44,414 nucleotides of DNA from an uncultured Bacilli bacterium (GTDB lineage: Bacteria > Bacillota_I > Bacilli_A > RF39 > UBA660), in NCBI GenBank assembly GCA_947630415.1, contig CANRHM010000001.1, forward strand, positions 1 to 44,414, in the 5' to 3' direction. The notes beneath the pieces were generated by a model. It worked only from the letters and a program-made list of their open reading frames with translations. It searched no databases and was not told where the DNA came from. Position 1 is the stretch's first letter. Each line of letters begins with the position of its first letter. The translations under genes and the position numbers were made by a program. This document shows, piece after piece, positions 2,944 through 31,486 of this stretch.

Positions 2944-3690
2944 TTACTTAGCTGAAGTTGCCACTAAATTAACTTTAGCTGAGAATGTTTTGTTGCTATA
3001 ATCTTCGGCATATTGTCTAACCCACAAACGTAAACGATATTTTTCATTATAACCAGGTTCTTCAATTTTTCTAGTAAATAACATTTTACCATCAAACTCA
3101 TTGCTCTTAAAATCTTCATATTGACTATATACTTTAACGCTTCCTAAATACAACGTTTCTGGCACAGCAATTTCTCTATTTCCCTTTAAATTCGTTACAT
3201 ATACTTTAACGTCCGGATCTAAAAGCGTAGAGGAAGCCATTTTTTCTAAGATAACTTTATACTCTAAAGGATTTCCTTCTCTTGGATTACCAGTAACTTG
3301 AAAATCAAAATAAGTATGATTTCCTACCATTACTTTACCTTCTTCATCGGTCATTGGAAAAGCATTGGTAATATAGATTCCGTTAGCAGGAAAATATCCT
3401 CCACTTCCACCGGAACCAGATCCTGAGCCCGATCCAGAACCCGAACCTGTTCCATCACCTTGAGCTCCACTATTATCCGAATAAGAAAATAAAATATCTC
3501 CTGTTTGAATGGTATTATTAGAAGTACTACTTCCACCATCCATTCCTAGATAATCTCGTTGAAAAGCAAATGAAAAAGTCATTAATCCAGAAATCAATAA
3601 AATAAATAAGAATATAAATAAATAAATATTTTTTCTAGAGGTCTTTGTTTCTTCTTGTTCAATATCAATATTAATGTCCTTTTTATCCAT
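2944..3690 (-). CDS. TasA-like paralogue with a SipW-cognate-type signal and an internal Gly-Ser repeat (248 aa)
   Basis: Long charged N-region and a TM ending in TFSFAFQ, then NNTIQTGDILFSY. Also GDGTGSGSGSGSGSGSGGSGG, NAFPMTDEEG, YFDFQVTG, KYRLRLWV and the C-terminal NKTFSAKVNLVA. Confidence 0.7.
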   Translation of the reverse strand: MDKKDINIDIEQEETKTSRKNIYLFIFLFILLISGLMTFSFAFQRDYLGMDGGSSTSNNTIQTGDILFSYSDNSGAQGDGTGSGSGSGSGSGSGGSGGYFPANGIYITNAFPMTDEEGKVMVGNHTYFDFQVTGNPREGNPLEYKVILEKMASSTLLDPDVKVYVTNLKGNREIAVPETLYLGSVKVYSQYEDFKSNEFDGKMLFTRKIEEPGYNEKYRLRLWVRQYAEDYSNKTFSAKVNLVATSAK

Positions 3691-3754
3691 ACCTCTTCAC
3701 CTCTATTATAAGAGTACCACATCTAAATCATTAATTCAAGTAAATATCGTAAAG

Positions 3755-3781
3755 AAAAAACACTCCGAAGAGTGCTTTTTT
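3755..3781 (-). terminator. intrinsic terminator after paralogue B
   Basis: Minus strand GCACTC-TTCG-GAGTGT hairpin followed by T6, with an A-run on the other side (bidirectional shape). Confidence 0.6.
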
Positions 3782-3788
3782 AACTAAA

Positions 3789-4634
3789 TTATTGTTGGTC
3801 TTTAGCAACGACATTTATTTTAACAGTGAATGTTTTTCCGTTAGTTCCTTTTTGGAATGTGTTACCCTCAACGCTACATTTACCTGCTGCTGGAACTTCT
3901 TCTTGCACTTGATCTGATTTTACACAAGCATCATTTGTCATTTGAGTTAAGTTGCCATTACCTTCATTTTCGGTAGTTTTATAGCCATCTTCAGCCAATC
4001 CACTTTTGAGATAATAACGATCAGAGAACCACATTTGGAATTTGTAATAATGTGTTGCTTCTGCTGCACTTACGGATTCACCAGTCGATGTGAAAGTACC
4101 TGAACCTAAAACTTTTTGAGCTTTTAGACTGCTATCAGAAATTAGTTGATCACCTTTAGCATCTTCTAAAGAATCAAAGAAAGTTGGTTTTACAAAATCA
4201 GAATAACTTTTAGCAGCGGTTTCATCTTTTAAAAGGCGTAAACGAACATACTTTGAATCCAATGTTTCATAGTTTGCTGGATCACTCGTCTCTGCAACAA
4301 TAATATCATAATCAATTGTTAATTTACCATTTAAAGTAGATGCAACAGTAAATTCAAATTCACCTTTTTCGTCGTCACTTAGATTAGTTAATGCAGTTCC
4401 TGTAGCATCAGTATCTGAAATAGGCATTGCATTTGTTAAATTGACACCGTTCCCAGTTTCATTATAACTGAATACCAAAGTACCTGTACTAATAGTATTA
4501 GTAGTTGTTCCTTGTTTTGAATAAGTAAAGAATGCGAATGACACTCCTACTACTGCAACTACTAAAATAGCAACTGCTAAAACTGATAATAAAACTTGAC
4601 TTGTTTGATGATTATTATTCCTTTCTTCATTCAT
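3789..4634 (-). CDS. TasA-like secreted protein, paralogue B (281 aa), SipW-cognate-type signal
   Basis: MNEERNNNHQTSQ, a TM ending in VSFAFFTYSKQG, then TNTISTGTLVFSY (compare TasA TWAAFNDIKSKDATFASGTLDLS, from memory). Also NAMPISDTD, EFEFTVAS, HYYKFQMWF and GKTFTVKINVVA. Strong RBS AAGGAGG. Confidence 0.75.
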   Translation of the reverse strand: MNEERNNNHQTSQVLLSVLAVAILVVAVVGVSFAFFTYSKQGTTTNTISTGTLVFSYNETGNGVNLTNAMPISDTDATGTALTNLSDDEKGEFEFTVASTLNGKLTIDYDIIVAETSDPANYETLDSKYVRLRLLKDETAAKSYSDFVKPTFFDSLEDAKGDQLISDSSLKAQKVLGSGTFTSTGESVSAAEATHYYKFQMWFSDRYYLKSGLAEDGYKTTENEGNGNLTQMTNDACVKSDQVQEEVPAAGKCSVEGNTFQKGTNGKTFTVKINVVAKDQQ

Positions 4635-4663
4635 TTTTCTCTTATCCTCCTTATCATAATTAG

Positions 4664-4693
4664 ATTATAGTAAAAGTTACCCCCCCCCGTCAA
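4664..4693 (-). promoter_or_regulatory. sigma-A promoter of paralogue B with a G9 tract in the spacer
   Basis: Minus strand TTGACG(4693-4688)-18 nt-TATAAT(4669-4664). The spacer begins with the rest of a G9 run (C9 on plus, 4680-4688). Confidence 0.6.
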
Positions 4694-4721
4694 GGGTTTT
4701 GACACAAAAATATTTTTGTTG

Positions 4722-4749
4722 ACAAAAAAAGTATCCATAATGGATACTT
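4722..4749 (-). terminator. intrinsic terminator after paralogue A
   Basis: AAGTATCCA-TTA-TGGATACTT perfect 9-bp stem (4729-4749), followed by a T7 run on the minus strand. Confidence 0.75.
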
Positions 4750-4758
4750 AATTTTTTA

Positions 4759-5580
4759 TTATGCAGCGTCTTTAGCATTTACATCTAATCGAACGACGAA
4801 AGTTTTTCCATTGGTACCTTTATCAGCTTCATTGTATGAAGCAGTTGCTTTTTCTGTTCCATTTTGTCCATATATTGGATCATCGCAAGGAATTTTTTCT
4901 TCACCTTCCATATATTTGGTATTTGTACACATATCAGGTGTCATCATTGTATCTTTAGTTGTTCCAGACTCTACATTATCCATATATTTTGTTGCAAACC
5001 ACATTAAGAAACGATATTTATGAATTTGCTCTGTTCCAGCTTCTGCTGTTCCTGTAAACTGTCCATTAGCTAAAAGTTTAGCTTCAGAATTTTCTTGAGC
5101 ATTATCCAATTTAACGAACCATTGTGGTGCTAGTTTTACCGTAGAATATGTACCTTCTTTATCTCCTCCATACAAAGCAACTTTAACGTATTTTGGATCT
5201 AGATGGTATCTTTCTTCTACATGATCAGTAGTCGATTTTTCAACAGTAATATCTTTAACACTTATTTCATAATTGATGGTCATTGTTCCAGAAATAGTAG
5301 ATGTTACACTGAAATCAAAATAACTATTTTCAGAAGCACCAACTCCGGTTGAAGGATCCGTCGTTGGAATAGCATTTTCTAATTTAATTCCAGGGGCTTC
5401 CTCCTCATATTTAAATACTAATGATCCTGTGCTAATGGTGTTGGTAGTTGATCCTTGTTTTGAATACGTAAAGAATGCAAATGACACTCCTACTACTGCT
5501 ACCACCAAAATAGCTACGGCTAAAACTGATAATAAAACCTGATTTGTTTGATGACTGTTATTGTTTTTTTCTTCGTTCAT
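4759..5580 (-). CDS. TasA-like secreted protein, paralogue A (273 aa), SipW-cognate-type signal
   Basis: The first ~58 residues are almost identical to paralogue B. It shares NAIPTTDPS, YFDFSVTS, HKYRFLMWF and GKTFVVRLDVNA. Strong RBS AAGGAGG. Confidence 0.75.
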   Translation of the reverse strand: MNEEKNNNSHQTNQVLLSVLAVAILVVAVVGVSFAFFTYSKQGSTTNTISTGSLVFKYEEEAPGIKLENAIPTTDPSTGVGASENSYFDFSVTSTISGTMTINYEISVKDITVEKSTTDHVEERYHLDPKYVKVALYGGDKEGTYSTVKLAPQWFVKLDNAQENSEAKLLANGQFTGTAEAGTEQIHKYRFLMWFATKYMDNVESGTTKDTMMTPDMCTNTKYMEGEEKIPCDDPIYGQNGTEKATASYNEADKGTNGKTFVVRLDVNAKDAA

Positions 5581-5608
5581 CTTTTCTTATCCTCCTTATC
5601 ATAATTAG

Positions 5609-5637
5609 ATTATAATAAAGTTAACCCCCCCAGTCAA
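5609..5637 (-). promoter_or_regulatory. sigma-A promoter of paralogue A with a G7 tract in the spacer
   Basis: Minus strand TTGACT(5637-5632)-17 nt-TATAAT(5614-5609). The spacer starts with G7 (C7 on plus, 5625-5631). Confidence 0.6.
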
Positions 5638-5665
5638 GTAATTTGACATAAATTTTTTTATTGAC

Positions 5666-5691
5666 AAAAAAAGAATGCTCTAAGCACTCTT
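5666..5691 (-). terminator. intrinsic terminator after the 3D-domain gene
   Basis: Minus strand AAGAGTGCT-TAG-AGCATTCTT (one G-U pair) followed by a T-run. Confidence 0.6.
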
Positions 5692-8967: not shown

Positions 8968-9210
8968 TAAAAAAAGATGACTTATTATGTTAAGGACGGA
9001 TCTTTTTCCGCGGTACCACCTTAATTTATAATAAATCATCTTATTATACACTTTCTAAAGTTAACGCCTATCTTACGTTTTCGCCTACCTATCGACGAAA
9101 AAGTTCCGAAGCCATATCCTACTTGAGTCATCTTTCCTTGCTTTCACCTAACCAAGGTCTCTTTCTTAAAGAATCAGTCACAGGACTCTTCATCAAAACT
9201 TTTGAATATG
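8968..9210 (-). promoter_or_regulatory. T-box leader riboswitch, methionine specifier (AUG)
   Basis: Minus strand carries TTGATGAAGAG (GA/K-turn region), GGTGAAAGC and the specifier loop GGAAAGATGAC (ATG at 9131-9129). It also has the T-box sequence AAGGTGGTACCGCG (9020-9009) and a terminator helix AAGATGATTTATTAT.../...ATAATAAGTCATCTT followed by T7. Confidence 0.85.
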
Positions 9211-22051: not shown

Positions 22052-22073
22052 ACATTATCACCTCAAAATAAAA

Positions 22074-22146
22074 GATGCACATGAGAATAAACTATTAAAG
22101 CTGCTATCTTCCGATCCTGACTTGGTTCTAGTCATCTCATTGCATC
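22074..22146 (-). ncRNA. ffs: small (4.5S-type) signal recognition particle RNA
   Basis: Minus strand reads GATGCAATGAGATGACTAGAACCAAGTCAGGATCGGAAGATAGCAGCTTTAATAGTTTATTCTCATGTGCATC. It forms a long hairpin (GATGCA/TGCATC, ATGAGA/TCTCAT). The domain IV signature is CCAAGUCAGGAUC-GGAA-GAUAGCAGC (compare E. coli CCAGGUCAGGUCCGGAAGGAAGCAGC). It is followed by TTTTATTTT, and a -10 box lies 7 nt upstream. Confidence 0.75.
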
Positions 22147-22152
22147 GATATT

Positions 22153-22181
22153 ATTGTAATCTATTTTTATTTTTTTTGCAA
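22153..22181 (-). promoter_or_regulatory. sigma-A promoter of the SRP RNA (and probably tadA)
   Basis: TTGCAA(22181-22176)-17 nt-TACAAT(22158-22153). Confidence 0.55.
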
Positions 22182-30052: not shown

Positions 30053-31420
30053 TCACTTGATATCTTTCATTAGTTTTTCAATGGTTCCTGCTAATTCTTT
30101 ATTCGTTTTCATTTCTCGTTCGATTTTTTCACAGGAATGCATGACAGTAGAATGATCTTTTCCACCAAATTCCATTCCTATCTTAGGAAAAGATTCATTG
30201 GTAAGTTTTCTACACAGGTACATGGCCACTTGTCTTGGAAAAGCAAGATTTGCACTTCTCTTTTTACTTTTCATATCTTCATTTGATATTTGGTAGAACT
30301 CGGCCACTCGCTTTTGAATTTTTTGAATATCATTTTTCTCAGTTACTCCTCTGTTGATAAAATCTTTTAAGGCTTCTATTGCTAAGTCTAAGTTAATTTC
30401 TTGTCCACCCATAATGGTGGAATATGCAAGAAGTCTATTAACTGATCCTTCTAATTGCCTGACATCGTTTCCCATATTAGAAGCAATATATTCAATGACA
30501 TCTTCGGGAATTTCTCTTTCAATGGCTCCTCCTAAAATTTTCTTTTTTAAAATGGATACGCGTAAATCGAAATCTGGTGGAAAAATATCTACCGTCAATC
30601 CCCAACAGAACCTTGTTCGTAACCTATCTTCTAAGACTTTTAAATCATCTGGTGAACGGTCCGATGAAATAATAATTTGTTTATTATCACTATATAAGGT
30701 ATTAAACGTGTGGAAAAATTCTTGTTGAGTTTTGGTAGCCCCTCCTAAAAACTGAATATCATCAATGATGAGTACATCGACATTTCGATATTTATTTTTA
30801 AAGTATTCTATATAATTAAAGTTATTGCCATTATCATCTTTAGTATTGATACCTAAGAAATCTTCTATAAATTGTTCACTGGTAACATATAATACGCGTC
30901 GATTAGAATTTTGTACGATGAAATTTCCAATCGCATGCATCAAATGGGTTTTTCCTAATCCACTATTACCATAGATAAATAAGGGATTATATATTTTTCC
31001 AGGATTTTCTGCTACCGCTAAAGCCGCGGCATGAGCAAATTTATTACTATTTCCAACAACAAAGTTTTCAAAAGTATAATTTGGATTTAAGTTTGATTGA
31101 ACATTATTATTGGAAGGAATAATAACTTCTTTCTCTTCTTCTTTTCGTCGCTCAATTTCTTTTTTCTCATCAATTTCTTCTTGAAGTAAGAATTCTATTT
31201 CAAAATTAGATCCTGCTAGATTATTAAATGTTTGAACAATTAAATCTTTATAATTATCTTCTAGATGTCGTTTATGTATTTCCATAGGAACAATGATCGT
31301 TGCTTTTCCATTCTCGAGTGCGTAAAGATGCGTATCTTGAAACCACGTTTCGTAAGATAAGGAGGTAATTTCTTTTTTTATTTCTTCTAAGAAATTATCC
31401 CATAAGATGGTAACATTCAT
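30053..31420 (-). CDS. dnaA: chromosomal replication initiator protein DnaA
   Basis: Start taken at MNVTILWDNFL (ATG 31420, AAGGA upstream). GNSGLGKTHL Walker A, IIDDIQFL, the sensor motifs and the C-terminal DnaA-box-binding helix (DHSTVMHS). Confidence 0.95.
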   Translation of the reverse strand: MNVTILWDNFLEEIKKEITSLSYETWFQDTHLYALENGKATIIVPMEIHKRHLEDNYKDLIVQTFNNLAGSNFEIEFLLQEEIDEKKEIERRKEEEKEVIIPSNNNVQSNLNPNYTFENFVVGNSNKFAHAAALAVAENPGKIYNPLFIYGNSGLGKTHLMHAIGNFIVQNSNRRVLYVTSEQFIEDFLGINTKDDNGNNFNYIEYFKNKYRNVDVLIIDDIQFLGGATKTQQEFFHTFNTLYSDNKQIIISSDRSPDDLKVLEDRLRTRFCWGLTVDIFPPDFDLRVSILKKKILGGAIEREIPEDVIEYIASNMGNDVRQLEGSVNRLLAYSTIMGGQEINLDLAIEALKDFINRGVTEKNDIQKIQKRVAEFYQISNEDMKSKKRSANLAFPRQVAMYLCRKLTNESFPKIGMEFGGKDHSTVMHSCEKIEREMKTNKELAGTIEKLMKDIK

Positions 31421-31486
31421 AAATATCACATCCTTACCAGCGTATTTTTTAAAAGTAAATTCATTGTTTTTTATTGTAACTGAAAT

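Follow-up and report, generated by a model that had tools for sequence, protein, structure and literature searches.

A G7 tract in the promoter spacer of a SipW-associated paralogue gene, probably a slippage-prone expression dial, in a gut Bacilli lineage

Gene cluster and predicted promoter of paralogue A

The window, i.e. the whole stretch of 44,414 nucleotides analysed here, comes from an uncultured low-GC gut bacterium, whose GyrB shares 87% identity with proteins labelled 'Bacilli bacterium' and 'Erysipelotrichaceae bacterium'. It includes an origin region at ~28.8-37 kb, with dnaA (30053-31429), dnaN, recF, gyrB and gyrA on the minus strand and mnmE, mnmG and rsmG on the plus strand, as well as a T-box leader upstream of metG (8989-9205) and a small SRP RNA (22058-22156). 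The gene cluster studied here lies ~25 kb from oriC, is co-oriented with replication and is encoded on the minus strand. Paralogue A (273 aa, 4759-5580) consists of a conserved N-terminal signal/anchor region with an SFA|FF motif and a variable, beta-rich mature domain. Paralogue B (281 aa, 3789-4634) is 46% identical to A, and the N-terminal 50 aa of the two are nearly identical. A third, more distant family member (248 aa, 2944-3690) has no poly-G promoter and contains a Gly-Ser linker, GSGSGSGSGSGSGGSGG, which is possibly a length-variable hinge; the DNA that codes for it (3413-3444) is an imperfect tandem repeat with a unit of 12 nt, 2.7 copies and 80% matches. A fourth member (215 aa, 1331-1978) is likewise distant, and both it and the third follow the N-terminal logic of A and B. 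The cluster also encodes a SipW-type (archaeal/ER-type) signal peptidase I (1908-2843), which matched TIGR02228 (1.8e-27, 96 bits, above the cut-off of 51.85) and, below its cut-off, the SipW model (1.5e-21). This peptidase has 311 aa, and the ~120 residues past the usual ~190 aa form a long acidic, Glu/Lys-rich C-terminal tail.

In A and B, the almost invariant N-terminus (QVLLSVLAVAILVVAVVGVSFAFFTYSKQG..NTI.TG.L.F.Y) is followed by a variable domain and then by a C-terminal strand (GTNGKTF.V...V.AKD). Neither Pfam nor NCBIfam provided a family for A or B, PF12389 (TasA) gave no hit at E <=0.1 for A, B or the other paralogues, precomputed Pfam domains were present in 0 of the 120 listed homologues of A/B, and a sequence-profile search of the PDB found nothing. 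The AlphaFold2 model of A (mean pLDDT 75.6) has a beta-rich core with values >90 over much of residues 100-230 and an unconfident N-terminal stretch of 54 residues. In a Foldseek search of the PDB, this model had no match at E <=0.001 and returned generic beta-sandwich hits with TM-scores <=0.4, and neither TasA (5OF1) nor AbpA (7UEG) was among the top 50 matches. When compared with TasA by hhalign, only the N-terminal 56 columns, i.e. the signal peptide and the NTIxTGxL motif, could be aligned (E 0.0028, probability 11%). In total, gut and rumen metagenomes contain 685 homologues of the family, for which there is neither a Pfam model nor a relative of solved structure. The original prediction had called A and B fibre subunits. 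The SipW neighbour and the conserved N-terminus (cf. tapA-sipW-tasA) are in favour of this name; neither a Pfam TasA hit nor a fold match was obtained. It is a reasonable inference that A and B are SipW-processed secreted proteins, possibly fibre-forming because of this neighbour and this N-terminus; membership in the TasA family is not established.

The predicted promoter of paralogue A (5609-5637, minus strand) reads TTGACT-GGGGGGGTTAACTTTAT-TATAAT, with the -35 hexamer at 5637-5632, a 17-nt spacer at 5631-5615 and the -10 hexamer at 5614-5609. The spacer opens with the G7 homopolymer (5625-5631, C7 on the plus strand), which abuts the -35 hexamer. With an 11/12 consensus match, this was the top-scoring promoter in the first 8 kb. 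The hexamers, the 17-nt spacer and the C7 run had been located at these positions in the original prediction, and the sequence, the consensus scan and the homopolymer count bore this out. The promoter sits between a terminator on its 5' side and the Shine-Dalgarno sequence and ATG of gene A on its 3' side, in the wider context TGTCAAATTAC-TTGACT-GGGGGGGTTAACTTTAT-TATAAT-CTAATTATGATAAGGAGGATAAGAAAAG-ATG. The terminator is the intrinsic one of the upstream 3D-domain gene (5671-5691, minus strand; 9-bp stem and T-run), lies directly 5' of promoter A and is predicted to insulate it. The Shine-Dalgarno sequence AAGGAGG (5591-5597, minus strand) belongs to a 22-nt 5'UTR block which is identical in A and B.

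The G-runs of promoters A and B

Promoter B (4664-4693, minus strand) consists of TTGACG, an 18-nt spacer and TATAAT, and it contains a G9 run at 4680-4688, the first G of which is the last G of the -35 hexamer. It is preceded by the terminator of gene A (4729-4749, minus strand). Both tract promoters are located ~30 nt upstream of AAGGAGG/ATG and downstream of a terminator, and from sequence prediction the two paralogues are separate transcription units, each with its own terminator, promoter and Shine-Dalgarno sequence.

The G7 and G9 runs had been said to occupy the same position in a duplicated promoter, and this was confirmed by an alignment in register within a direct repeat of 90% identity. 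The promoter/5'UTR blocks of A and B are 90% identical, and the first 170 nt of the coding sequences are 84% identical. In the alignment, TTGAC-T-G7-T-TAAC (A) and TTGAC-G9-TAAC (B) have equal lengths, and the extra base of the B spacer lies downstream of the G-run (TTTAT in A, TTTTAC in B). Since T-G7-T and G9 are equally long, the difference between the two spacers comes from the T-run and not from the G-run, and the G7/G9 contrast inside the window consists of two flanking T/G substitutions and a T-run indel, not of G slippage. The statement that the tract of A is two G shorter than its duplicate is right for the runs, but the spacers differ by 1 nt only (17 vs 18). The two promoters do not differ mainly in homopolymer length, as had been supposed, and other differences include ATTAC (A) vs AACCC (B) upstream of the -35 hexamer. 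Spacers of 17 and 18 nt are both common and functional in sigma-A-type promoters. The view that A is in an optimal state and B in a sub-optimal one is thus overstated: A does have 17 nt, but the 18 nt of B is also a common length, and the difference does not arise from the G-run. We discounted a terminator-like hairpin predicted at the B tract (ACCCTTGACGGGGGGGGGT), since it arises from the pairing of CCC with the G-run; promoter A, which has no CCC, does not show it.

Hexamer matches alone were rejected as evidence, because matches of >=11/12 were no commoner in the window (5) than in first-order Markov simulations (4.3 expected). In contrast, two G/C runs of >=7 were observed vs 0.25 expected, and the G7 and G9 runs are the only G/C runs of >=6 in the 44 kb of the window (31% G+C). 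The two best promoter matches of the region are those that carry these runs, each at the equivalent place in the spacer. The placement and count of the tracts in the window are not due to chance. Two other candidate explanations were dismissed. One G-run cannot provide the four G-tracts of a G-quadruplex, and a poly-G read artefact of two-colour chemistry does not fit runs which are short, internal and set in a conserved context in several assemblies.

Tract length in a near-identical contig, a sister genome and more distant loci

A 1249-bp ENA contig (L001), assembled from a different sample, encodes an identical protein A and differs from the window by 1 SNP and 1 indel over 1250 bp. The sole indel is one G in tract B (G9 in the window, G8 in L001), and tract A is G7 in both of the two sequences available for the exact locus (n=2). 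This same-locus comparison is one independent pair, and at the coverage of L001, only 1.6x, the G9/G8 difference could also be a homopolymer sequencing error. A tract fixed across sequences was to speak against switching, and the outcome was divided: A had a constant G7 (n=2), but B had G9 vs G8. When contigs were scanned with the DNA pattern of the conserved 5'UTR, no further alleles were found among metagenome contigs, and the matches among genome contigs came from the sister MAG alone. Look-ups by exact protein, with the 3D-domain protein and the third paralogue among the queries, gave no additional contigs of the locus.

It is worth considering whether short-read metagenome assembly has introduced the homopolymer, or the differences in its length, by error. 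Homopolymer length is the most error-prone feature of such data, L001 has a coverage of 1.6x, and L001 and another contig, L008, end close to promoter B. On the other side, independent assemblies from several samples show the tract in a conserved promoter context, and so do six loci of a second MAG, some of them on contigs with 11x coverage. We consider a sequencing or assembly artefact very improbable as an explanation. Because of this recurrence in independent assemblies the existence of the tract is not an artefact, although single lengths could be off by one. As for the contig ends, the low-coverage contigs L001 (3' end) and L008 (5' end), which are from the same strain, stop at ~4607 and 4652 of the window, ~30-75 nt downstream of the G-run of promoter B; the assembly may have broken at the duplicated promoter/5' module in both cases.

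The second MAG, a sister genome with ~90% ANI (GCA_947623935.1, 'uncultured Bacilli bacterium', isolate Lapin-030 bin56), has the same locus in the order metG, tatD, the 3D gene, two paralogues, a third paralogue, sipW, three more genes and ksgA. Both tandem promoters on its contig (L002) read TTGACT-G8-TTAACTTTAT-TATAAT with a spacer of 18, so that the orthologue of promoter A has G8 where the window has G7. With identical flanks (TTGACT-Gn-TTAACTTTAT-TATAAT), the run is G7 in promoter A of the window, G8 in both L002 promoters and G9 in L006, a further contig of the sister MAG. The window has the tandem pair A/B and two distant paralogues only; by contrast, at least four further family genes are dispersed in the sister MAG (contigs 39, 36 and 2, i.e. 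L004, L005 and L006; near ruvA, ldh and the rimM/trmD region), and this terminator-promoter-5'UTR module precedes every one of them. For example, the dispersed paralogue adjoining ruvA has G9 with a spacer of 18, that on contig 36 has G9 with a spacer of 17, and one on contig 2 has G9 with a spacer of 19. Another member on contig 2 (L006 3656-5781) encodes a 687-aa protein, and its promoter reads TTGACA-T-G9-TAGTTT-TATAAT with a spacer of 16. This protein has the family N-terminal domain and a ~470-aa C-terminal extension, with no Pfam hit on the extension, and from its architecture it could be a tip- or adhesin-type member. The promoter A module is kept in L001 and in the sister-MAG contigs L002, L004, L005 and L006. 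In the sister MAG, at least six family genes have a poly-G spacer promoter; the spacers in the family measure 16, 17, 17, 17, 18, 18, 18, 18 and 19 nt, and all G runs of >=6 in ~100 kb of sequence from the lineage fall in such promoter spacers.

The genes which flank the cluster are 92% and 86% identical at the DNA level between the window and the sister MAG. The mature-domain DNA of A and B (3722-5371 of the window, compared with L002) could not be aligned by blastn, and the proteins share 52% amino-acid identity, with the promoter, the signal peptide and the C-terminal strand as the only conserved modules. Conserved flanks with diverged mature domains are the pattern of a surface antigen, and they would be consistent with diversifying selection or cassette exchange.

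A second element of these promoters is a palindrome, GTCAA-N5-TTGAC, which overlaps the -35 hexamer (GTCAA-ATTAC-TTGAC at 5633-5647 for A and the same half-sites at 4689-4703 for B, both on the minus strand). In 7/7 poly-G promoters of the genes for 240-280-aa family proteins in the lineage of the window, the half-sites are constant and the central 5 nt are variable, and in most of them an extra GTCAA occurs 13-15 nt upstream of the palindrome, at the end of the terminator T-run. The palindrome may be an operator for some regulator. This leads to an alternative in which a dimeric factor bound to the palindrome drives the promoter, the G-run sets the distance or the DNA shape towards the -10 hexamer, tract length is secondary, and expression would be primarily environmental, by analogy with the Bordetella fim promoters. 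The conserved half-sites, the varying centre and the further GTCAA fit this proposal. However, the near-consensus hexamers (11/12) need no activator on paper, no regulator has been identified, and the poly-G promoter of the 687-aa gene does not have the palindrome. We regard regulator dependence as the main cause as improbable, for the environmental control as well as for the secondary part of tract length.

In more distant loci the uninterrupted tract was absent. A relative with ~46% protein identity has homologous promoters with interrupted G-rich spacers of 17-18 nt (TTGACG-GTTTGGGGCAAGTTTTC-TATAAT and ACGAGGGTTCAC), in which the interrupted G stretch reads GGTTTGGGG or ACGAGGG. No G tract was found at the syntenic locus of another species (nine assemblies), and no G/C run of >=7 at 87 more distant loci (330 kb). 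Among 75 family gene starts, upstream G runs of >=7 were confined to the lineage of the window, and the 66 others had runs of <=4. The absence from distant loci indicates that the uninterrupted G-run is derived and lineage-specific, and the spacers of relatives, which are G-rich yet interrupted at the same place, indicate that G-richness is older than the homopolymer. Within the lineage, many family members have either gained the uninterrupted run by its spread or kept it. A different kind of length variation was seen at the homologous locus of a more distant species (contigs L010-L018), where a tandem duplication of ~23 bp (TTTTTATTTTTCGATAATTTAGA) lies ~60-110 nt upstream of the first fibre gene. 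Two copies are present in most samples and one in L015, and the samples also differ by T4/T5 inside the duplication and by T8/T10 in the terminator of the next gene.

These comparisons can also be read as slow drift, i.e. the G-run would be a fixed, slowly evolving promoter feature, retained since a G-rich spacer tunes promoter strength; rare indels would alter its length between species and paralogues on an evolutionary time scale, with no switching at a relevant frequency within a population. Tract A is G7 in both same-locus sequences, L006 and L007 both have G9 (since they are identical over 8.4 kb, the two do not test this independently), all spacers fall within the functional range of 16-19 nt, the relatives have an interrupted G-rich spacer at the same place, and G7 is at the lower limit of mutability. 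Drift fits less well with three tract lengths between identical flanks within ~90% ANI and inside one genome, with a lone indel in 1.25 kb between near-identical strains that falls in the tract, with uninterrupted runs that arose on six or more genes of a single family but at no other place in ~100 kb of the lineage, and with the independently built promoter of the 687-aa gene, which again has G9. Taken together, slow drift is an unlikely account, though it is the main rival.

A candidate slippage-prone promoter spacer

The reading which we favour, with modest confidence, is that the G7 tract is the mutable element of a putative slipped-strand promoter-spacer contingency locus, one of which would belong to each SipW-associated family gene. 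In this mechanism, slipped-strand mispairing during replication would add or remove a G in the spacer tract, and the gain or loss of a G would alter the distance between the -35 and -10 hexamers (16-19 nt in the family) and hence the strength of a sigma-A-type promoter. From this range of spacers we infer that tract length may control downstream transcription. The family spacers straddle the optimum by one or two bases, which suggests a likeness to known 'volume-control' promoters. Since spacers of 17 and 18 nt are both functional, the effect may be graded and not ON/OFF; as sequenced, A (17 nt) would have maximal or nearly maximal strength, and B (18 nt) would be somewhat weaker. Because the promoter of each paralogue is insulated by a terminator, tract changes would raise or lower each gene independently, and such independent changes could lead to mixed surface phenotypes within a population. 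The idea of independent switches put forward in the original prediction is therefore retained in part. The separate units, the position of the tract in the spacer, the G7/G8/G9 series with identical flanks and the indel in tract B speak for it, but the G7 of A is the same in both sequences. The regulator-based proposal is compatible with a contingency locus and does not exclude it.

Slippage may be frequent enough for phase variation, with G7 at the lower limit. Phase variation is usually predicted for G/C runs of >=7 (PMC6321876), and by this measure of hypermutable length G7 lies exactly at the limit and G9 above it. The PhasomeIt authors noted that tracts at the cut-off may mutate below 1e-5 (PMC6321876), and G7 in a Firmicute proficient in mismatch repair may be too slow for true phase variation.

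Homopolymer switches in promoter spacers are textbook knowledge in Gram-negative pathogens, mycoplasmas and treponemes. In Neisseria meningitidis porA and opc and in Haemophilus influenzae hifA/hifB, a repeat between -35 and -10 gives high, intermediate or no expression; these are single genes or divergent pairs in Gram-negative pathogens, whereas a dispersed paralogue family is concerned here. Phase variation in walled Gram-positive commensals has so far been ascribed mostly to invertons. In Mycoplasma hyorhinis, a homopolymer reportedly lies in the -35/-10 spacer of the vlp genes (work of Yogev et al. 1991 and of Citti and Wise 1995). The layout is similar to ours, with a shared module of promoter, 5'UTR and signal peptide, variable mature regions and a homopolymer for each gene, and Mycoplasma is phylogenetically the nearest host among the analogues (GTDB class Bacilli; cf. 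the GyrB of the window). The vlp tracts differ in that poly-A of ~17-20 nt fills the spacer and the products are lipoproteins, while here poly-G takes up the first 7-9 nt and the products are SipW-type secreted proteins. Both the combinatorial variation of Vlp proteins in Mycoplasma and the hif spacer repeat of Haemophilus have been described (PMC11868660).

Poly-G of similar length (~7-12) is found in the promoters of a paralogous surface-protein family of Treponema pallidum. Poly-G length controls the promoters of tprE/G/J, tprL and tp0126, with <=8 G permissive for tprE/G/J, and the tract of tp0126 is between -35 and -10 (PMC7864442). Treponema is GC-rich and G-runs are common in it; here, at 31% GC, the tracts are the only such runs and so are more conspicuous. 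In Bordetella, tract lengths of fim2, fim3, fimX and fimN differ between strains or species, and the one-base change between C7 and C8 alters fimX transcription 3.8-fold (PMC1891110). As in Bordetella pertussis and B. bronchiseptica fim, alternative genes for surface-filament subunits would each have their own promoter with a G/C homopolymer upstream of -10. However, the fim promoters depend on BvgA and a 'fim box' and have tracts of 10-22, whereas here tracts of 7-9 lie between near-consensus hexamers; the Bordetella-type layout, with a BvgA site and a fim box in place of the -35, was not found at promoter A, which has a near-consensus -35. The Fim proteins are of the chaperone-usher type, and the proteins here are unrelated, SipW-associated and from a low-GC Gram-positive gut host.

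For the proteins themselves, the nearest comparison is with tapA-sipW-tasA of Bacillus subtilis (PMC9245690) and the archaeal AbpA/AbpB fibres (PMC9674648), in which a SipW-type peptidase occurs with beta-rich major and minor paralogues. The cluster resembles them in a dedicated SipW-type peptidase with several secreted beta-rich proteins; the N-terminal motif that follows the predicted cleavage site gave a weak alignment with TasA. It differs in that tasA is controlled by SinR and AbrB and not by a repeat tract, and in that here neither a PF12389 match (the criterion for TasA in PMC9245690 is E <=0.005) nor a TasA/AbpA fold match was obtained. A literature search on SipW/TasA, Firmicutes or Erysipelotrichaceae together with homopolymeric phase variation found no relevant report. 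The mechanism itself is known; its occurrence in this gene family and in this host lineage would be new.

A wider version of this proposal is more tentative, and we hold it as possible rather than probable. It says that the lineage has a phasome in which every SipW-processed family member, including the 687-aa protein, has its own poly-G switch, with combinatorial variation like that of the Vlp proteins. It places this phasome, with the same reserve, in uncultured, spore-forming, Erysipelotrichales-like gut Bacilli, i.e. in a walled Gram-positive commensal. Paralogues might also exchange cassettes, given the conserved 5' module and the hypervariable cores.

In conclusion, the tract in promoter A probably acts as an expression dial that is prone to slippage. 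Dials of this type are well known, and what is new is the gene family and the lineage. The finding draws attention to an uncharacterised, widespread family with the genetic hallmarks of a surface antigen. If the tracts switch, uncultured gut Firmicutes would vary a family of secreted surface proteins through a form of bet-hedging that is based on slippage, and tract length in metagenomic reads would be a simple marker for the expression state of each paralogue in vivo.
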